A DNA stretch of 37,691 bases from a virus (Duplodnaviria > Heunggongvirae > Uroviricota > Caudoviricetes). The notes beneath the pieces are model-generated. The model was not told where the DNA came from. It saw nothing but the letters and a program-made list of their open reading frames with translations, and made no database searches. Shown in pieces: positions 803-35,440 of this stretch. A program made the position numbers and the translations under genes. Every line of letters begins with the position of its first letter. The stretch's first letter is position 1. The stretch covers positions 1 to 37,691 of the IMG/VR virus record IMGVR_UViG_2751185969_000015. One strand, 5' to 3'.

Positions 803-1705
803 TCAGTAGTTATGTACTGAAGGAGGTAATTCTTTATTCTTAAGTCTCATCCATGCGGAAAGATTCGTTGGTCCGTCTGGCTCATTAATATCAACATCTC
901 GTGTATGGTTGATTAAAACATCTCTCGCCATATCGATAATACGGGAGAACTCATAACCGCAGTCATGACATCTGCCGGAATAGTTCGATTGAATTTGTTT
1001 TAATGCCGGATACAGTTCGCGGAATAATGCCTGTGAACGGTTGGCATAATCCCATAACCATACAAGGCTGTTTGCTTCTTTTGCAGAAAGCTCGTTGGTT
1101 TTCTTCTCTTGTTTGCCGATAAACTCACCTTCAAGCACTACCCTGTGGATGTACTCTACGGCTTGCGGTATCTGAGATGCATCAAGCTCTTCAATACTTT
1201 CCACATTGAAACGCTGATGAATCATTGCATAAGCTTCTGGGTACATTAGATGCTTTTTGCTGACCAGCATATTTACAGCATCACGAAGCGGAGTCCTGTC
1301 ATCAACAGATGTTTTCTTACGTGCATTTTCTGCCTTTCCCTTTGTCCAGTAGTCATGCAGTACAGTAAAGCATTCTTCCTGGTACTGAATCAGTTTATCA
1401 CGGATGTCAGCACGAACTTTCTCAGGGTTGATGCTGAACAGCCATCCATTTAACTTCTTCAGCGGGATGCATAAAAGCTTACGTAACTTGCCATCAGCGG
1501 CAACCATAGAGATATCTCTACAGTTGAATTTGTCCTTCATTTTACGCAACTTAACAGATTGACCAGTCCAGTCGATACCAATGTTTTCCACAATTTGACG
1601 CATCGCTACATAAGTCACTCCGGCAGCCATAGCGGTTAAAATCTGCTGACCATTGAAAGGCACGTAAGAGGTGTTCACTGCTTCTAAAATTGCTATACTA
1701 TTCAT
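803..1705 (-). CDS. ant: Antirepressor Ant (P22 immI type)
   Basis: Translation from the internal ATG (1703-1705) begins [37 protein letters not shown]..., matching P22 Ant as I recall it. GGAG-like RBS upstream. The track ORF start at 1771 is an upstream in-frame extension. Confidence 0.85.
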
Positions 1706-1767
1706 GTTGGTTTTTCTCCACGGATTTACCGACAACCGAAGCCCTGACTGTTCCCGCAGTTGGGGCT

Positions 1768-1989
1768 TCACTGTTTTTGTAAGTCACTGTAGCTATAAAG
1801 CCACTGACCACTCATTTTTGATTTGATTGACTCTACTGAATCACGGCAAGGAATGATTCCGCCTGACATCATTCTGATCTCCGTAAATTCACCACTCCTT
1901 ATCGATTCAATGCCATCAATGTTAACTAAAGATTTACCTCTACCAAGTGCATTCTCATAGCCAATCTCATCAACCTCAATAAACCTCAT
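1768..1989 (-). CDS. Hypothetical 73-aa protein inserted between arc and ant
   Basis: [29 protein letters not shown]...; its ATG overlaps the arc stop (ATGA), suggesting translational coupling. No family recognised. P22 has no gene between arc and ant. Confidence 0.5.
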
Positions 1990-2144
1990 ACCGTTATCCC
2001 CTCTCTCTTCAGGCTGTCCAACACTCGCTTGTAAATCTCAGAGTTAACAGATCGCCCGTTCTCTTCCGCCACCTTACGCACCAAATCCAATACTTCTTTA
2101 GGCCACCGCAAATTGAACTGCGGCATTTTGCTCATTCCTTTCAT
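1986..2144 (-). CDS. arc: Arc repressor (ribbon-helix-helix)
   Basis: Translation from ATG 2142-2144: [52 protein letters not shown], near-identical to P22 Arc as I recall it. Confidence 0.9.
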   Translation of the reverse strand: MKGMSKMPQFNLRWPKEVLDLVRKVAEENGRSVNSEIYKRVLDSLKREGITV

Positions 2145-2159
2145 ATTTACCTCACAATA

Positions 2160-2207
2160 TAGATCCACCGTGGACCTATTGAGAATATAGTAGAGTGCTT
2201 CTATCAT
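2160..2207. promoter_or_regulatory. immI divergent control region with Mnt and Arc operators (Pant/Pmnt)
   Basis: Imperfect palindrome GATCCACcGTGGACC (about 2163-2179) resembles the P22 Mnt operator. ATAGTAGAGTGCTTCTATCAT (2187-2207) matches the P22 Arc operator. Both lie between divergent arc and mnt. Confidence 0.7.
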
Positions 2208-2234
2208 GTCAATACACTAACTTGGGGTGATGGC

Positions 2235-2483
2235 ATGGCTAGAAACGATCCGCACTTTAACTTCCGTATGCCTTTGGAAGTAAGAGAAAAATTGAAATTA
2301 AGAGCAGAGGCTAACGGAAGGTCAATGAACTCTGAGTTATTACAAATCGTTCAGGATGCTCTCTCCAAACCATCACCTGTAAGCGGGTATCGTGATGAAG
2401 AAGAGAGGCTGGCCTCATTAATCTCGGAACGAGTAAAAGAAGTTGCGGCTGATATCCTTAGAAAAGAAAAAACCCGCGATTAA
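2235..2483 (+). CDS. mnt: Mnt repressor
   Basis: MARNDPHFNFRMPLEVREKLKLRAEANGRSMNSELLQIVQDALSKPSP..., closely matching P22 Mnt. Confidence 0.9.
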   Translation: MARNDPHFNFRMPLEVREKLKLRAEANGRSMNSELLQIVQDALSKPSPVSGYRDEEERLASLISERVKEVAADILRKEKTRD

Positions 2484-2489
2484 GCGGGT
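2461..2489 (-). terminator. Terminator between convergent mnt and the minus-strand operon (bidirectional; stronger on minus strand)
   Basis: Hairpin ACCCGC-gattaa-GCGGGT (2472-2489) with a long U-run on the minus strand (complement of 2461-2471); only a weak T-run on the plus strand. Confidence 0.6.
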
Positions 2490-2497
2490 TTAGTTGG

Positions 2498-2719
2498 TTA
2501 GTTATCAAAAAGTCCGTACGTTTCTTCTTCTTCAGGTGTAAGGGGAAGAATCTCTACTCTATCTATAGATACCTTTTCAATGTACCCATGAGGTCTACTT
2601 AAAATTAAAGCTCTCTCATGCCACAGAACTCCAAGAATGTGATACCTCCCAGCATCGCCTTTTACCCTGGCTCTTCCTTTGATTCTTGGCGACATAATGC
2701 CATATTTTTTCTTTGCCAT
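2498..2719 (-). CDS. Hypothetical 73-aa basic protein, last gene of the RHH/Bro-N operon
   Basis: ORF MAKKKYGIMSPRIKGRARVKGDAGRYHILGVLWHERALILSRPHGYIEK...; its ATG overlaps the stop of the upstream gene. No family recognised. Confidence 0.5.
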   Translation of the reverse strand: MAKKKYGIMSPRIKGRARVKGDAGRYHILGVLWHERALILSRPHGYIEKVSIDRVEILPLTPEEEETYGLFDN

Positions 2720-3447
2720 TATGCAACATTACTCCCATGAATCAGGTGTTGTAGTGCTTTAACACCTTCCGCATTGTAGCGGAATACTTCCACCTGTTTG
2801 CTGGAATGCGCAGATTTATCCAGGAAGAACTTACCGTACTGCTCAGTTTTGAGGTTGTTTGCGTTAGCAATGCGACCAATCTTGTTGGCCGTTACTCCAA
2901 GCTGCTCTGCAACCTCCCCTGCTGAGTAGTAATGCTCTTCTATTGCTGGAAGAGGTATTGCATTAAAACCAACGATCGGGTTGATTATGCTTGCTGCCGC
3001 AGTCTGCTTTGCTTCCGGCGCAAGATTTGGCATCAAATCGAACAGATTGGTAACAGCTTCAACCGTCATTTTCAATGTTCGCGCCTGGCGATACTCAACA
3101 AGTCCACTCGACGATTTACCGCTTTTAATGTGCGCTTCTTGCATACTTTCAAGTTGGTCTACAAGTGAGCGGCGAACAGCTTTAGATTCACGAGCAGCCA
3201 CTCGAAGGGCTTGCTTAATTGACATAACAACTTTTTCAGAAGTTGTCTTGTTTGATTTTTGAACTACGAAAATTTCGTAGTGCTCACCTTCAAGTTCATC
3301 CTTAATGCGTGCAATAAAGTCGTTATTTCGGACTTCTTTTTCCCCGCACTGTCTACGAGCATGATTGACCATCTCTAACAGGTACTGGCTATCAATGGTT
3401 TTATCCGTGACAACGGATCCGATGTTTGCTACATTCTTAAAAGTCAT
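2719..3447 (-). CDS. Antirepressor-like protein (KilAC / P22-AR-C type C-terminal domain)
   Basis: Start taken at internal ATG 3445-3447 (MTFKNVANIG...) with an AAGGA RBS. C-terminal segment YYSAGEVAEQLGVTANKIGRIANANNLKTEQYGKFFLDKSAHSSKQVEVFRYNAEGV resembles phage antirepressor C-terminal domains. Assignment from motif recall only. Confidence 0.5.
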   Translation of the reverse strand: MTFKNVANIGSVVTDKTIDSQYLLEMVNHARRQCGEKEVRNNDFIARIKDELEGEHYEIFVVQKSNKTTSEKVVMSIKQALRVAARESKAVRRSLVDQLESMQEAHIKSGKSSSGLVEYRQARTLKMTVEAVTNLFDLMPNLAPEAKQTAAASIINPIVGFNAIPLPAIEEHYYSAGEVAEQLGVTANKIGRIANANNLKTEQYGKFFLDKSAHSSKQVEVFRYNAEGVKALQHLIHGSNVA

Positions 3448-3535
3448 TAGGCATTCCTTATGTGGTAGTAAGGGTGTGACATAGGCCGCCAGCAGCACAC
3501 TGGCGGTTTTCTTTTTGCGCAGTCCGGCGCACCAA

Positions 3536-4162
3536 TCAATGAATCCATTCCTCGCCGCGAAGTTTTGCCAGCATTGGCTGAGCGTTCTTTACGACAAAAT
3601 TGTTGGTATCAAGATTCTTCATTTCACGAAGAAGTGATTTCTTGGTTTCTTCTGACATGTAGCGAGTCTCATATGCAATATCGTAAATCCTTCCTGAAAG
3701 CTCAGAACCAATTTGCTTCATTCCTGGGTAGATGTGTTTGCACGTTTGTTGACTCTTCTCCATCCACAATTGTAAGTAGCAGAGATTAACCAGTTCTTCG
3801 TCAGTAAACTGTTTTGCAATCGGTGAGCATTCTGCCTGCCGATCCAAAATATCCAGCACCCAGCGGCGGAACTCTTTGGCTACCGGAGTGCGAGCAAACA
3901 TCGCGATTAGGTGGGCACCGCGTAGTGAGAAAACTCGCACTTTTTTGCGATAATTTCCTGAGGTACTCACTTCGAGTACCTGAGTCATTCCGGCGCTAAA
4001 CTCATCGCTATACTTGTTATAAATCATTGTTACTGCACGACTATTTGCGTATTTAAGTGCAGATGCAATATTAGATGATGTAAACCAAACACCATGCATA
4101 TCACGGGTGGGCACCAACTCAACTCCGTGGAAGTTGTAATCTGATTTTGCTACAATACTCAT
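3536..4162 (-). CDS. Bro-N domain protein (putative antirepressor)
   Basis: Start at ATG 4160-4162 (MSIVAKSDYNFHGVELV...) with an AAGGAAA RBS. Clear Bro-N signature: ...WFTSSNIASALKYAN...RVFSLRGAHLIAMFARTPVAKEFRRWVLDIL. Confidence 0.7.
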   Translation of the reverse strand: MSIVAKSDYNFHGVELVPTRDMHGVWFTSSNIASALKYANSRAVTMIYNKYSDEFSAGMTQVLEVSTSGNYRKKVRVFSLRGAHLIAMFARTPVAKEFRRWVLDILDRQAECSPIAKQFTDEELVNLCYLQLWMEKSQQTCKHIYPGMKQIGSELSGRIYDIAYETRYMSEETKKSLLREMKNLDTNNFVVKNAQPMLAKLRGEEWIH

Positions 4163-4235
4163 GTTAGTTTCCTTGCATACGGTTACTGACATAGAGGCCC
4201 GGTTTGTGTTCGCGCACTGCCGGGCTTCACTATTT

Positions 4236-4409
4236 TTATTGGATGACAACATCGCCCTTTGCCTCAAGTTTCATCAATAACTCCATTCGATAAGCTATCT
4301 CTGCCTGAATTGACCTATGGCATCTTTTTGCTGATTCGCGGATATGTGAATCAACCTTTTCTGTAAAACGAACCTGACGCGGCTTGATGGAAGATATCTT
4401 TTCAGTCAT
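4236..4409 (-). CDS. Small ribbon-helix-helix-like regulator (57 aa); not in the ORF track because it is under 60 aa
   Basis: Hand translation: MTEKISSIKPRQVRFTEKVDSHIREAAKRCHRSINAEIAYRMELLMKLEAKGDVVIQ. Strong AGGAG RBS. Beta-strand then helix pattern typical of Arc/MetJ/CopG-type RHH proteins. First gene of the operon divergent from the S24-like regulator. Confidence 0.5.
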   Translation of the reverse strand: MTEKISSIKPRQVRFTEKVDSHIRESAKRCHRSIQAEIAYRMELLMKLEAKGDVVIQ

Positions 4410-4508
4410 TATGCACTCCTGTTTTTAAAAAACTCATAATCTCACTTTTTGTAGTTTGATTATTCACTCACACTCAGTATGAGTCAATGAATTTTTTATG
4501 GTGAACTA
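4410..4508. promoter_or_regulatory. Divergent intergenic control region between the RHH operon and the S24-like regulator
   Basis: 99-bp AT-rich spacer between two divergent start codons; expected to hold divergent promoters and operators. No specific boxes assigned. Confidence 0.4.
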
Positions 4509-5150
4509 ATGAATTTTGACGATCAATTCCCATCAAGAGTATCTCTGGCAAGACAGTCCAGGGGTATGACGCAGGCGCAGTTGTCAAAATTAGCTGGTGT
4601 TGTTCAACGTCAAATAGCTGCATACGAGGGTGGTGAGGCTAAACCACGGCTTCGGGTATTGCAGGCATTAGCCAACGCATTAGGTACTACAGCTGAGTGG
4701 TTAGCTCTAGGTGAAGGTCAGGGTCCGGGAACAAAAAACGTCATGCCTGACGTTCTGGTAAAGCAAATACCAATCCTCAAACTAGATGAAGTTATGCATT
4801 ACCTAAACACAGGTGAACATTCATCGTCTAGATTTCATCCGGCAATATACAATGTTGGTGACTCTGCATTTGCATTGACTATTGAAGGTGAAGCTATGAC
4901 TACAAGTTCAGGTATTAGCTTTCCCAGAGGATCGGTTGTCACGTTCAGCCCTCTAGTAAAAGCTAAAAGCAAAGATTATGTAATAGCATCATTGGATAAA
5001 GAGCAAATATTGAGCTTCAAACAGGTTTACATTGGTGAAATAGAGACAAACCTAGTATCCCTAAACCCAATGTATCCTAATATTCTTGTTAGAAATGAAG
5101 ATGTTAGTATTTTGGCAACCGCAGTTTACCTTGAAATCCCGTTGCTTTGA
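4509..5150 (+). CDS. CI/LexA-like regulator: XRE-family HTH plus S24-peptidase-like domain with Ser to Ala at the nucleophile position
   Basis: N-terminal HTH (GMTQAQLSKLAGVVQRQIAAYEGGEAKP). C-terminal domain aligns with the lambda CI C-terminal domain: AFALTIEGEAMTTSSG vs lambda [16 protein letters not shown], and SFKQV vs TFKKL. The Ser of the G-x-S-M motif is Ala; the catalytic Lys is retained. Confidence 0.75.
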   Translation: MNFDDQFPSRVSLARQSRGMTQAQLSKLAGVVQRQIAAYEGGEAKPRLRVLQALANALGTTAEWLALGEGQGPGTKNVMPDVLVKQIPILKLDEVMHYLNTGEHSSSRFHPAIYNVGDSAFALTIEGEAMTTSSGISFPRGSVVTFSPLVKAKSKDYVIASLDKEQILSFKQVYIGEIETNLVSLNPMYPNILVRNEDVSILATAVYLEIPLL

Positions 5151-5210
5151 TATCCTTTAGGAAGCGACACATTATCATCTGGTATCCTGCTCAAAACTAA
5201 GGAGGTTGGT

Positions 5211-5660
5211 GTGAGTGAAAAATTATCAGTTGAGATTTACAGGGATGCCAAAAAATTGATTAAAAAGGCATTGCTGATTTCCCTATCTTTGTTAGCCATT
5301 GCCATTGTTTATTTTGTGGCAGACAAAATCTATACAGAACAAAAAAATAGCAAAAAAAGCGCTGAACTGATTATGCGAGCCGAAAATGCTGTCAAGGGTA
5401 CCCAACCTAAGGTGTTCAATAGAACAGACCTTGGCGAAAGTCACTCTATTTCCATTTGGTTTATTAATGATTCAGATAAGCACATTCTTGTAGAAAAAAA
5501 CGGTGAAAAATCGTTGTTTTCTACAGGAGGATATGTATCCGGTGATATCCATGCATATCATCAGGCCGGAAAGGCATGCGAAACCCTGTCTTTTTCTATG
5601 GATTCAAGTTCTGTGATATCCGCTTCTTGCGATTTTGATGATTATTACCTTAAAAAATAG
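5211..5660 (+). CDS. Single-pass membrane-anchored protein (moron at the P22 sieA-equivalent locus); GTG start
   Basis: GTG start with AAGGAGG RBS 5 nt upstream. N-terminal hydrophobic helix LLISLSLLAIAIVYFV followed by a roughly 110-aa soluble domain. AT-rich. Lies downstream of the S24-like regulator on the same strand. Confidence 0.55.
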   Translation: MSEKLSVEIYRDAKKLIKKALLISLSLLAIAIVYFVADKIYTEQKNSKKSAELIMRAENAVKGTQPKVFNRTDLGESHSISIWFINDSDKHILVEKNGEKSLFSTGGYVSGDIHAYHQAGKACETLSFSMDSSSVISASCDFDDYYLKK

Positions 5661-5677
5661 CCATCCATGGCGTCACC

Positions 5678-7813
5678 TCAATCCTGTGCCATTCCGCTTA
5701 GCGATGCCACAATCCCAGCCCTCGACAAACGCTGGAACTCTTCGTTTCCTAGTGCATCGCGAATTGCTTTTACGGCGGCCTTATTTGCCATAAATCTGCG
5801 TTCCGCCGCCGCTAATGCGCCATCACTTGCCCCAACTTTAACTGCCTTTGTCGCCTCTTGAACAGCCTTTTCAATAGCGTAACGACCACTTCTGGTTGCG
5901 GATAATTTCGCTATCGATCCTTTTGCTATTGCATCAATTGCTCCACCTGCAGCGCCACCCACTATTGCTCCAATAACACCTCCTCCAGAGAACCCTGCGA
6001 TAGCGCCAGCGGTTGGAAAAGCGCCAGACAATACGCTCTCTAAAACTGGATGAAGGCCATTCTCAAGAGTGCTAATGGCTGGCATAGAGCGCCCTGTTTG
6101 TTCAACATATCGAAGTGGCTTTGTTGCTGCTCTTGCAAGTTCTCCAAACCCCCTGGCAATCCTACCAAGCTCTGGAGAATATCGACTAATTGCCTTCACG
6201 TTTTGTGGGGTAAGAATAGTCGCGATATGCTTAATTCCAGCCTCTTCAGACTTACCTCCGCGTACCCCTTGCGATACCGCATCTTGTAATATTGATGCAA
6301 TTGCTGGCGCGCGTTCCGACTCAGGTAGGGCGCTTATTATTTTATGGAACTGACCTGTTCCACTTTTTGCTGAACCCTGCAACGCCTTAGAGCCATTAGT
6401 TACCAACTGATCAGTTGCAAGGTCTCTACCAAACGCTGCTTCAGCCTGTTCTTGTGCTGTAAATCTTGCCTTTGACAGATCATTAGCTTTTTGCCAGTCA
6501 TCAAGAAAACCACCATTTTGAGCCATTATGCGCATATCTTCCGTTGCTGCATCACGAAGCTCAGCCATGCGCCTTGCCGTATTTGCCTCACCAGACCTTA
6601 TATACTTCTGCTCTGCGTCAGCAAGTTTACTTCGCCATGCCTTCATGGCATCAAACGTGATTCCTTTTTTACCAGTTTTAGCATAAGCAGATGCGAATTG
6701 TTTCATCTCAGGAGTTAGCGGCATGCCAGCCAAAATATCACCCTGAATTGTAGCGTTCAGGTTTGACATTCTGGCCTTTGCGTCAGGCATCGTGGAGCGA
6801 ACGCTATCCCATGCGGCCTTTTCTGAATTTTTCATTTTATCAATACTTGCCAAAACCCTTTGTTTTATGGCTGCACTTTTTTCTGATGCAGTTCCTGCTT
6901 CAGCCCCAAACTCATCCAATGCTGAGTTAAATTTCGACTCTATTTCACTGAATGCTTTGGTGTGTGCATCCTGTGTAATTCCGGGCTTTGACGCCAGAAT
7001 CCCCTCCGCCTGAGCAAGACCACGACTACCTGATCTCATGCCAGGAGTTAATGCGTTGATATCTATTCCAGCAGTATCTGCTGCTTTTGCTATTTCGTCT
7101 GACACATTAGCTGACTGTCTGGCGATAATCTCTCTTCCTGTACCAGACTTTGCCATTTTCGAAACATCAGCAGCGGAATTTATTGCCCCGCCACCAAGAA
7201 CTTGAGGTGATTTAGAGGTTAAGATCCTTCCAGCCCCAGAAAGTATCCCCTGAGCACCAATATTGATACCACCGTTAATGGCAGCATTTTGTGCAAAGTC
7301 GCCCTCCTGATTTGCAGCATCAGCAAGAGAACCTGCAATCATGTTTCCTGCGGAACCGATATCTCCAGCGAGCTTTGCTGGCGCTCCAGCAGCTTTTGCC
7401 GCTGTGCCAATTGGCAGGAGATACCCCCCAATTGTTTCACCGGCTTGCGCGTAAGGGTCTGTCGGTCGATCGACTGGACGATAGACATCATCCAATACTT
7501 TTGGCCCACCAAGCCCCTGACTGATTGCATTAATCAGACTTGCGCCACCCTGCAATACGTCAAATGGTATGTTTACCAGACCACGACCAGCCTGTTCTGC
7601 AATTTGCCCTGCACTTTGACCACCAGTGAGCCAATCGCCAGCTTGTTGCATCAATGATGGTTCTTCACGCGCTGGTTCATTATTGGCCTGATTAACTGTT
7701 TGTTGCTGAACAGCCTGACCAGCAAAATACTCATCAATGGCGGTGCCAATATCTTCCGTGCTCGTACCATCAGGAAAGGTAAATGTCTTACCATTTGCAG
7801 TTACTTTCATCAT
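5678..7813 (-). CDS. Ejection (injection) protein, P22 gp16-like
   Basis: 711-aa Ala/Gly-rich protein in the P22 gp16 position (downstream of the gp7 and gp20 homologs); overlaps the upstream gene by 4 nt. Confidence 0.7.
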
Positions 7814-28101: not shown

Positions 28102-28317
28102 TTAAGCGGCTTTGTGTTCCGGCGGGAACACGTCATCAAGACTGACTTTTGCGCCTAACTTGTTTAGGCACGCAACAAGAGCACGGCATGTTTTAAGGTC
28201 TGGGAAGCGACGACCAGATTCCCAATGTCCGATAGCTCCCTGTGTGCATCCAACTGCCTTAGCAAGTGTTGTTTGAGAGATATTCAGTGACTCTCGATAT
28301 TTTCGTAGGTTGCTCAT
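28102..28317 (-). CDS. cro: Cro-like repressor (XRE-family HTH)
   Basis: Start at internal ATG (28315-28317) with GGAGGG RBS: MSNLRKYRESLNISQTTLAKAVGCTQGAIGHWESGRRFPDLKTCRALVACLNKLGAKVSLDDVF... Divergent from cI. Confidence 0.75.
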   Translation of the reverse strand: MSNLRKYRESLNISQTTLAKAVGCTQGAIGHWESGRRFPDLKTCRALVACLNKLGAKVSLDDVFPPEHKAA

Positions 28318-28434
28318 ATGCCCTCCATAGTAAACACGAATAAAAAAATACAATATGTACTTTGCGAATACAAGTAAAAATACACATTGTGCATGGATGG
28401 TTCCAGTACAGAGCGTAATAATAAGGACATGAAA
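28318..28434. promoter_or_regulatory. cro-cI intergenic control region (OR with PR/PRM)
   Basis: 117-bp AT-rich spacer between divergent cro and cI. Contains TACA...TGTA-type near-palindromes (for example TACAATATGTA), similar to motifs in the PL region. Confidence 0.6.
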
Positions 28435-29088
28435 ATGAAATGGTATGAACTGGCTAGATCCAGAATGAAAGAGCTCGGCATAACTCAAGAGAAGTTAGCC
28501 GAAGAGCTAGGTATGACGCAGGGTGGGATTGGACACTGGTTGCGCGGATCTCGTCATCCATCTCTTAGTGATATTGGTGTGGTGTTTAAATACCTTGGTA
28601 TTGATAACATATCATTCAACCACGACGGGACATTTTCACCTGTTGGCGAATACTCATCGGCCCCAGTTAAAAAACAATATGAGTACCCTGTATTTTCTCA
28701 TGTTCAGGCTGGGATGTTCTCTCCAGAACTCAGAACCTTTACCAAAGGCGATGCGGAGAGATTGGTAAGCACAACCAAAAAAGCCAGTGACTCTGCATTC
28801 TGGCTTGAGGTTGAAGGTAACTCAATGACCGCACCAACAGGTTCCAAACCCAGCTTTCCTGACGGGATGTTAATTCTGGTTGACCCTGAGCAAGCTGTTG
28901 AGCCCGGCGATTTCTGCATAGCCAGACTTGGTGGTGATGAATTTACCTTCAAGAAACTGATCAGGGATAGCGGTCAGGTGTTTCTACAGCCACTAAACCC
29001 ACAATACCCAATGATCCCATGCAATGAGAGTTGTTCCGTTGTGGGGAAAGTTATCGCCAGCCAATGGCCTGAAGAGACGTTTGGGTGA
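28435..29088 (+). CDS. cI: CI repressor (hybrid: novel N-terminal HTH domain, lambda-type C-terminal S24 domain)
   Basis: C-terminal roughly 130 aa match lambda CI ([135 protein letters not shown]), including catalytic Ser and Lys. The N-terminal domain ([42 protein letters not shown]...) is unrelated to lambda CI. Start chosen at the second ATG (28435) for RBS spacing. Confidence 0.85.
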
Positions 29089-34811: not shown

Positions 34812-35440
34812 GCGAAATTAATTACCAGGCACTGCGTGAGGCGGCGGAACGTGCAATTCCAGCAATGGAACGCCTGTTAATGTTGCCAGCTGATGATGAT
34901 TTGTTAAGTGAACAGGAACTTAAAGATTACGGTGTGGATATTGATGCGCTCAACGCCTTCAAATTTCTGGCCGGACCAGAAACCGTGCTGGCACTACTGG
35001 ATGAACGGGAAAGAAACCAGCAATACATCAAATCTCGTGACCAGGAGAACGAGGATATTGCGCTAACGGTAGGGAAGCTGAGAGTTGAGCTTGAAGCCGC
35101 TAAAAAGTGTATTGCAGAGCTGGAAAGCAATTGCGGGGCGCTGGTGGCGGAATGCCAAAGCAAAAAAGCAGCACTTGAGGCAATTCTTAGCCATTGCCCA
35201 ATTAATCATCCAGATATAGACATCGCATGTATAGCGAACATCGCTCATAACGAATTAGGCGAGGCGAAAAGCAGTACATCTAAGGCATCCCTTGTAGAAA
35301 TACAGGCACAAGGGGTGGAGGCATTCGCTTTGACGATGCGCGATACAGGAGATGATCCATTTTTTGATTCCGTTGCTTCTGCTTGCGCGGATGCAGCTGA
35401 TAGGTTCGCTGCCCAGCTTCGCAAAGGAGGCAACCAATGA
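34808..35440 (+). CDS. Paralog B of the tandem family (GTG start)
   Basis: N-terminal 96 aa identical to paralog C ([36 protein letters not shown]...LRVELEA); C-terminus shared with paralog A. AAGGAGG RBS lies inside the conserved repeat. Confidence 0.6.
   Translation: MSEINYQALREAAERAIPAMERLLMLPADDDLLSEQELKDYGVDIDALNAFKFLAGPETVLALLDERERNQQYIKSRDQENEDIALTVGKLRVELEAAKKCIAELESNCGALVAECQSKKAALEAILSHCPINHPDIDIACIANIAHNELGEAKSSTSKASLVEIQAQGVEAFALTMRDTGDDPFFDSVASACADAADRFAAQLRKGGNQ

Follow-up and report, generated by a model that had tools for sequence, protein, structure and literature searches.

Through antirepressors, which are common in enterobacterial genomes, prophages can induce one another; to our knowledge, the way in which these genes are silenced is largely unknown outside P22, Gifsy, N15, and 186. 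In P22, Mnt is the maintenance repressor, and it is not known to be inactivated during induction of the phage. Ant itself is not required for P22 induction (Lemire et al., PMC3121763). In the Gifsy, N15, and 186 prophages, the antirepressor lies outside the immunity region and is silenced by a dedicated repressor (PMC3121763). In this work, the phage sequence IMGVR_UViG_2751185969_000015 was analysed over its whole length of 37,691 nucleotides (the window), with a focus on the gene at 4509..5150, which encodes a regulator related to lambda CI and LexA. This regulator is a non-peptidase homologue of the S24 family and most likely the maintenance repressor of a second immI-type cassette, in which it would replace P22 Mnt; we give this reading a probability of roughly 0.6.

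The CI-like regulator and its lost cleavage determinants

The autocleavage signature of S24 proteins consists of an Ala-Gly or Cys-Gly bond together with a Ser-Lys dyad (PMC8565304, PMC13148647). In the regulator, the lysine base was found, and both the serine nucleophile and the Ala/Cys-Gly bond were found to be missing. The gene, its domains, and the positions concerned are as follows.

4509..5150 (+): CI-like regulator gene with a helix-turn-helix (HTH) and an S24-like domain, the proposed Mnt analogue (open reading frame (ORF), Pfam, lambda CI alignment, AlphaFold2 and Foldseek)
4548..4703 (+): HTH_3 DNA-binding domain, residues 14-65 (Pfam, E 9e-13, above the curated cut-off)
4791..4796 (+): Val95-Met96, where lambda CI has its Ala-Gly scissile bond (alignment with the window's lambda-type repressor and 137 relatives)
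4830..5126 (+): S24-like C-terminal domain, residues 108-206 (Peptidase_S24 PF00717, E 1.3e-12; Foldseek; purifying selection)
4893..4895 (+): GCT, Ala129 at the position of the Ser nucleophile, GEAM against GNSM, lambda CI Ser149 (codon read, alignment)
5019..5021 (+): AAA, Lys171, the retained general base, equivalent to lambda CI Lys192 (codon read, alignment)

The regulator ORF begins with ATG at 4509, ends with a stop codon at 5148..5150, and encodes 213 amino acids. Its N-terminus MNFDDxFPxRV is conserved in 22 homologues, and M1, F3, D4, F7, and R10 are invariant in 23, which supports the start at 4509. The GenBank coding sequence of the identical regulator in Escherichia phage JEP4 (10193..10762, locus L001) begins 72 nucleotides 3' of this conserved ATG, and the product as annotated, named 'repressor protein C2', is cut off at the N-terminus and at the start of the HTH domain. 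The annotated coding sequence is probably too short.

The protein has the architecture of the lambdoid repressors, an N-terminal HTH followed by a CI-like oligomerisation domain. The match to Peptidase_S24 scores above the Pfam curated cut-off, and a phmmer search against the PDB aligned residues 108-206 with the lambda CI C-terminal domain (2ho0, 3bdn, 1kca; E 1e-7 to 3e-7). The AlphaFold2 model has a mean predicted local distance difference test (pLDDT) score of 86.5. Foldseek superposed it on 1f39, the C-terminal domain of lambda CI, with 1.8 A over 98 columns and a target-normalised TM-score of 0.84, and it also matches 1kca, LexA, and UmuD'. Both Pfam and the model place the S24 beta-barrel fold in the C-terminal domain. 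The alignment with lambda CI pairs LTIEGEAMT with LEVEGNSMT and SFKQV with TFKKL with high posterior support. Furthermore, the PDB entries of the K192A mutant of CI read Ala opposite Lys171 of the regulator, which fixes the register.

A sequence-only reading of this gene had proposed a CI/LexA-like regulator in which the S24 nucleophile is changed from Ser to Ala and the catalytic Lys is kept. The first part was borne out by the phmmer alignment to the PDB, by the codons, and by the AlphaFold2 model, and the second by the equivalence of Lys171 and Lys192. The same reading had the C-terminal domain aligned with lambda CI residue for residue; the register holds, although this wording was slightly generous, since the alignment contains one gap of 2 residues and one of 1 residue. 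Its further expectation, that the usual SOS route would not cleave the regulator, is supported by the predicted site residues and is strengthened by Val95-Met96 at the scissile position, which it had overlooked.

The alanine is well placed in its motif. Across the homologues, M130 is invariant and G127 nearly so (at least 90%), whereas residues 131-134 (TTSS) belong to a loop whose length and sequence differ among family members. A TTSS serine at the nucleophile position was looked for in the alignments, and none of them puts one there. The 90%-identity cluster has 14 listed members, which come from E. coli and Salmonella, and GEAM stands in every one of them. As the exact regulator protein is also recorded on at least 1000 contigs, Ala129 is not a sequencing error. 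Among 5426 complete E. coli genomes, 28 carry the regulator in full length at 98.6% identity or higher, strain HS included. The scissile region reads IPILKLDEVMHY in place of the CI Ala-Gly site, and no AG or CG dipeptide occurs in residues 66-110, the linker between the HTH and the S24-like domain. Judged from these residues, the regulator should not autocleave, in the first place because the nucleophile is Ala, and this is reinforced by the missing Ala-Gly.

The regulator shares with lambda CI, P22 C2, and LexA (MEROPS S24) the HTH, the linker, the S24 fold of the C-terminal domain, and the general-base lysine. It differs from them in the Ala nucleophile and the Val-Met site, in its location outside immC, in having no cro partner, and in its proposed target, which is an antirepressor operon. 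The same chemical change at the position of Ala129 has been engineered in LexA S119A (PDB 1jhh) and lambda CI S149A, and Ser-to-Ala forms of LexA are further represented by the mutant entries 6a2s and 8s7g. A non-cleavable LexA is also encoded by lexA3 (PMC3121763). Unlike in the engineered mutants, the change in the regulator is natural, is fixed in a lineage that occurs in E. coli and Salmonella, and is accompanied by the loss of the scissile bond.

A word-indexed and an exhaustive profile search gave a family set of 137 comparable proteins, which comprises the 68 closest relatives of the regulator and 69 more distant, classical CI-like proteins. The cleavage determinants are distributed over them as follows.

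Closest relatives (n = 68), nucleophile: Ser 51, Ala 14, and Gly, Thr, and Asp 1 each
Closest relatives (n = 68), base: Lys 49, Arg 18, Val 1
Closest relatives (n = 68), Ala/Cys-Gly site: present in 2; all three features in 2 (P0016, P0045)
Distant CI-like proteins (n = 69), nucleophile: Ser 59, Ala 7, and Thr, Asp, and Gly 1 each
Distant CI-like proteins (n = 69), base: Lys 58, Arg 11; Ala/Cys-Gly site in 35; all three features in 32

By the counts over the 68 close relatives, the loss of cleavage determinants is a trait of the family and not a one-off event. In a neighbour-joining tree, the serine was lost at about seven separate positions. The nearest Ser-bearing lineage (P0003), which is 81% identical, has TCT where the window has GCT, and two further Ala lineages carry GCT and GCA at the nucleophile codon. 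Many of the Ser-bearing relatives (P0012-P0021, L009-L014) have an additional C-terminal stretch of about 50-70 residues that is coiled-coil-like (e.g., RLxxLExKLDxLLxLL); the regulator of the window is without this extension.

Both domains of the regulator are under strong purifying selection, as observed in a comparison of four genes, three of them Ala-bearing and one Ser-bearing. Synonymous sites are at or near saturation (proportion of synonymous differences, pS, 0.69-0.86), and the nonsynonymous divergence (dN) ranges from 0.05 to 0.16 for the HTH domain and from 0.19 to 0.27 for the S24-like domain. The low dN against nearly saturated synonymous sites indicates that the S24-like domain is still under selection after losing its chemistry. 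Moreover, the presumed recognition helix RQIAAYE (R34-E40) is invariant in 23 homologues. Across the family, Ser, Ala-Gly, and in many cases Lys have been lost from a domain that is still selected, which points to a role in oligomerisation without cleavage, and the S24-like domain is presumably kept for dimerisation or cooperativity.

The second immI-type cassette

Read from its gene order and domain matches, the regulator is at the head of a putative second immI-type cassette, which consists of the regulator, a 99-base-pair (bp) region, a gene for an Arc-like ribbon-helix-helix (RHH) protein, a sar-like RNA, and antirepressor genes. Its components are listed below.

4410..4508: divergent control region of 99 bp between the regulator and the Arc-like gene; the gap is conserved in related loci
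4236..4409 (-): Arc-like RHH protein of 57 amino acids, first gene of the operon (hhalign against the window's Arc, PDB profile matches)
4148..4240 (+): putative sar-like antisense RNA gene; the predicted RNA runs from about 4163 to about 4240 and covers the ribosome-binding site and start codon of ant2 by complementarity
3536..4162 (-): antirepressor Ant2 with Bro-N and P22_AR_C (Pfam; PHROG 245 'anti-repressor Ant', E 5e-65)
2719..3447 (-): second antirepressor-like gene, PHROG 1726 (E 7.5e-100, residues 18-259; maximal ORF to 3498)
2498..2719 (-): ORF of 73 amino acids and unknown function, PHROG 4977, last gene of the operon; a terminator-like hairpin follows at 2470..2491 (terminator scan)
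4459..4487 (-): near-consensus sigma-70 promoter of the antirepressor operon, -35 TTGACT, 17-bp spacer, -10 AATAAT (10/12 matches in the promoter scan)
4431..4443: left box pair ACTCAtaaTCTCA, candidate operator; inverted repeat I1, partly conserved across 47 distinct control regions
4472..4492: palindrome ACTCAGTATGAGT (4472..4484) and right box pair TGAGTcaaTGAAT (4480..4492), candidate operator; overlaps the -35 (conservation)

The 57-residue family was related to the window's own Arc by hhalign with a probability of 81% (E 1.2e-5), and its profile matches Arc, AmrZ, CopG, and Mnt chains in the PDB. The maximal ORF of ant2 extends to 4267; the likely ATG at 4162 was taken from the homologues. 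As in P22 immI, an Arc-type RHH gene precedes the antirepressor in one operon. The divergent regulator is not Mnt, and an HTH and S24-like protein stands there. The Arc match, the sar-like RNA, and the antirepressor together make the cassette a relative of immI with a CI-like protein in the place of Mnt. It resembles the P22 immI/ant moron in occupying the same slot, in having a regulator divergent from an operon of RHH and antirepressor genes, and in the placing of a predicted two-hairpin antisense RNA over the ribosome-binding site. On the other hand, its regulator is a 213-residue protein and not the 82-residue RHH protein Mnt, its RHH protein is only remotely related to Arc, and its operon contains two antirepressor-like genes.

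The sar-like RNA is preceded by an extended -10 TGcTACAAT at 4148..4156, on codons 2-5 of ant2. Its first hairpin carries an anti-Shine-Dalgarno sequence in the loop, and a GC-rich terminator hairpin (4194..4228) is followed by a U-run. The predicted fold has -33.3 kcal/mol and z = -6.1. Compared with the canonical sar, the RNA shows 68% identity and the same two-hairpin architecture, with compensatory changes in stem-loop 2, the terminator stem. The Rfam sar family (RF00262) matched at the corresponding position in the sister locus L002. On the window's sar-like RNA it gave no match, even at E up to 10 on a 151-nucleotide stretch, where the best Rfam match was SymR at chance level. RNAalifold on MAFFT alignments recovered the terminator stem only, stem-loop 1 being misaligned between two sequence types. 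A hairpin followed by a T-run was counted automatically in 30 of 57 cases and was seen by eye in nearly all; the automatic figure is an undercount because minimum-free-energy folds add spurious outer pairs. The -10 of the sar-like RNA (TAnnnT, often TGnTAnnnT) overlaps codons 2-5 of the antirepressor gene, and in 49 of the 57 distinct loci it was located 2-6 nucleotides upstream of the start codon. This overlap would account for the M-x-x-[IVL]-A N-termini that are common to unrelated antirepressors (Bro-N, P22_AR_N, KilA-N).

In the control region, an A-tract lies immediately 5' of the -35 of the leftward promoter. The -35 GTCAA was found in 47 of 55 distinct related control regions, and in these 47 an information content of 1 bit or more is reached at positions that include ATGAGTCAA and, within the -10, TAT. 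A near-consensus promoter with an A-tract and a conserved -35 suggests that the promoter needs repression and not activation. The perfect palindrome ACTCAGTATGAGT occurs only once in the window and does not recur in immC. We estimate that about one 5+5 palindrome is expected by chance in 99 bp, and because of this the case for an operator rests on conservation and not on the palindrome. This 13-bp palindrome was considered as proof of an operator and set aside, its left arm not being conserved in the relatives; it is kept as a candidate only. The invariant R34-E40 of the presumed recognition helix fits a conserved half-site. We treat the boxes as candidate operators of the regulator or of the RHH protein. 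A regulator promoter formed by TTGATT (4456..4461) and TATGAG (4478..4483) was also considered; it is weak, lies below the scan threshold, and was offered solely by analogy with Pmnt.

No LexA box (CTGT-N8-ACAG with at most 1 mismatch) was found within 2627..5226, and LexA control of the divergent operon was rejected on this ground. In the Gifsy, N15, and 186 prophages, LexA cleavage in the SOS response releases the antirepressors, whereas here a LexA box is missing and the dedicated repressor is predicted to be uncleavable. From these two features, expression of the antirepressor should be SOS-independent. Over the whole window, 24 LexA-box-like sites were counted by the same definition against 12.4 expected, a number reached in 0 of 100 shuffles; none of them lies inside the two ant cassettes, and a pair of identical 16-mers, at 34874 and 35503, points to local duplication between neighbouring genes.

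The module is found in other phages with the same anatomy. Of the 72 IMG/VR loci, 70 have an Arc-like homologue transcribed divergently from the regulator, as do all 13 loci from species genomes and assemblies (83/85 in total). Where the Arc-like start codon can be called without ambiguity, 98-101 bp separate it from the start of the regulator. Thirty-seven distinct downstream genes were compared, of which 35 follow the Arc-like gene and 2 are the upstream gene in loci without it. Their domains are Bro-N (25), P22_AR_N (8), ANT (3), Rha (2), and KilA-N (1). The backbones that carry the module include a lambda-like tail gene cluster (L002), a position next to an integrase (L005), and P22-like ant morons (the window and L089). 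In L004, the module lies at the prophage end beside a phage with its own CI.

Relation to the main repressor and the canonical immI

The window is a P22-like phage with its late genes on the minus strand, and its best phage match is JEP4, a Lederbergvirus. Besides the second cassette, it contains an ordinary main immunity repressor and a canonical immI.

28387..29088 (+): main immunity repressor (Peptidase_S24 E 1.3e-28; lambda-CI-identical C-terminal domain with QAG, GNSM, and FKKL)
803..2483: canonical P22 immI cassette, for comparison; adjoins the second cassette (Pfam, Rfam, promoter scan)
2235..2483 (+): mnt (Pfam Arc domain)
1986..2144 (-): arc (Pfam Arc domain)
1706..1772 (+): sar (Rfam, 87.3 bits)
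803..1705 (-): ant, P22_AR_N and P22_AR_C; maximal ORF to 1771

The main repressor, whose true start is probably a few codons 3' of 28387, faces an HTH gene at 28102..28488 (-) and fills the immC role, and the Ala regulator sits in the late region. The main repressor is chimeric, with a non-lambda HTH joined to a C-terminal domain that is essentially identical to that of lambda CI, an instance of mosaicism at the level of domains. As it has all the cleavage determinants, SOS induction runs in the usual way and needs nothing from the Ala regulator. The sequence-only reading had concluded that an uncleavable regulator needs another inactivation route, such as an antirepressor. This conclusion is not supported here, because the main repressor is cleavable and the regulator has the position and the orientation of Mnt; since Mnt is not known to be inactivated during P22 induction, a regulator in a Mnt-like position would require no inactivation route. 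The neighbouring Bro-N protein is most likely a regulatory target of the regulator and not its inactivator.

The regulator had also been placed between the ejection genes and immI, outside the immunity region. These coordinates are right, but the gene heads a second immI-type cassette that abuts the canonical one. Both cassettes lie between a gene for a gene-16-like DNA transfer protein (5678..7813) and the tailspike, which is found at the start of the window and in JEP4. The slot between the gene-16 homologue and the tailspike is the 'ant moron' position (PMC2629481). The canonical cassette has overlapping divergent promoters in the promoter scan. In total, the phage has three antirepressor-like genes (ant, ant2, and the PHROG-1726 gene) under what would be two different maintenance repressors. 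In JEP4, the second cassette and mnt are present, and arc and ant are lacking.

Directly 3' of the regulator there is an ORF of 149 amino acids at 5211..5660 (+), which occupies the slot where P22 has sieA and is absent from JEP4. Its N-terminal part is hydrophobic and possibly membrane-spanning, and the gene is possibly co-transcribed with the regulator. It had no match in Pfam, in PHROGs, or by tblastn against phages.

Proposed mechanism, alternatives, and meaning

We hypothesize that in the lysogen the regulator would be made constitutively and its HTH would bind the conserved boxes in the 99-bp region, one set of which lies over the -35. The bound regulator would silence the operon that encodes the Arc-like RHH protein, Ant2, the second antirepressor-like protein, and the 73-residue ORF, and the S24-like domain would be used solely for dimerisation or cooperative binding. 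With its Ala nucleophile and Val-Met site, RecA filaments would trigger no cleavage, so DNA damage would leave Ant2 unreleased. After entry into a naive cell, the operon would be expressed for a short time, after which the Arc-like protein would stop transcription and the sar-like RNA would stop translation of ant2, as in P22 immI. We infer repression rather than activation from the strength and conservation of the near-consensus promoter facing the regulator, the box over its -35, and the homology with immI.

Several points weigh against this hypothesis. The operator assignment is ambiguous, because the right-hand boxes are hard to separate from the -35 hexamer and, by our estimate, chance alone would give rise to 5-bp palindromes. 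No rightward promoter for the regulator reached the threshold of the promoter scan. Most relatives retain Ser and Lys despite having no Ala-Gly, so there may be some residual or alternative proteolytic function in the family. The window already encodes a canonical Mnt, which would mean two maintenance repressors and three antirepressor-like genes in one phage. Finally, no experiment on DNA binding, repression, or non-cleavage for the regulator family was found in the literature searched.

The regulator may instead be an activator. Phage transcription factors were reported to activate a counter-oriented small ORF whose product inactivates cI without cleavage, and in two of the characterised modules the factor is an XRE-type protein that acts with a LuxR-type receptor (Silpe et al. 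2023, PMC10432266). The layout here is superficially alike, with a regulator, about 100 bp, a 57-residue ORF, and then antirepressors; both arrangements set a regulator opposite a small gene of the other orientation, with an output directed at the main repressor. A cue other than SOS would then cause the regulator to activate the divergent small gene and the antirepressors, the main repressor would be inactivated, and the S24 domain would serve as a sensor or partner domain. We consider this unlikely. In the described modules, the factor activates and the small protein itself acts as antirepressor, whereas here the small ORF encodes an Arc-like DNA-binding RHH protein and no orphan peptide. 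The divergent promoter looks constitutive, being near-consensus with an A-tract, which is typical of promoters that need repression, and it has a conserved box over the -35. Moreover, the cassette has an Arc-like gene, an antirepressor gene, and a sar-like RNA that correspond to those of P22 immI, where the divergent regulator represses.

It is likewise doubtful that the dead S24 domain has been repurposed as a receiver, either by binding RecA filaments without being cleaved or as the target of an antirepressor from another prophage. If this were true, the cassette would be a mobile, SOS-independent switch for induction or cross-talk between co-resident prophages, and the repeated catalytic loss would reflect selection for a reversible over an irreversible response.

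The regulator could also be imagined as a second, SOS-proof immunity repressor that acts on the phage's own or on heteroimmune lytic promoters and makes the prophage non-inducible or provides additional superinfection immunity. The HTH and CI-like C-terminal architecture would suit such a protein, as would the GenBank name of the identical JEP4 protein. We regard this as quite improbable, since the regulator and the main repressor differ in their HTH regions (VVQRQIAAYEGG in the regulator), since immC contains no copy of the control-region palindrome, and since 83 of 85 loci, some of them in phages with a CI of their own (e.g., L004), link the gene to the Arc-like gene and an antirepressor.

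Intermolecular cleavage is known for UmuD. Together with the retained Lys171 and the serines 4-5 residues downstream of Ala129, this might suggest that the regulator is still cleaved, either with another residue as the nucleophile (e.g., Ser133 or Ser134) or in trans by an active S24 protein (e.g., the main repressor or LexA). Such cleavage is very improbable, because the register of G-x-[S/A]-M is fixed and the TTSS loop is variable, and because a linker without Ala-Gly or Cys-Gly in residues 66-110 offers no substrate in cis or in trans. The idea of a decaying, non-functional remnant of a former CI gene, which would account for the catalytic residues eroding across the family, is hardly credible for a gene that is full length in all 28 carrier E. 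coli genomes, whose exact protein is on at least 1000 contigs, and which shows strong purifying selection on both domains with R34-E40 invariant.

S24 homologues without catalytic residues and antirepressor cassettes in P22-like phages are already known. On the other hand, the conserved unit of four parts in which a CI-like pseudo-protease takes the position of Mnt, its spread through phages of the Enterobacterales, and the family-wide erosion of cleavage determinants appear to be undescribed in the literature searched. Villafane et al. (2008, PMC2629481) pointed out that the ant moron of the HS-1 prophage has no arc and must be under some other control; the available part of that text makes no mention of the present regulator. 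E. coli HS carries the regulator gene itself.

The regulator is a natural case of an S24 domain held under selection after catalytic loss, and since the catalytic chemistry is lost, annotations such as 'LexA family' or 'repressor C2' wrongly suggest SOS responsiveness. If the regulator is the maintenance repressor of the second immI-type cassette, a compact mobile unit of a pseudo-protease, a region of about 100 bp, an Arc-like RHH protein, and a sar-like RNA drives interchangeable antirepressors in several phage backbones of the Enterobacterales. This would answer the question, raised in 2008, of how ant morons without arc, such as that of the E. coli HS-1 prophage, are controlled.

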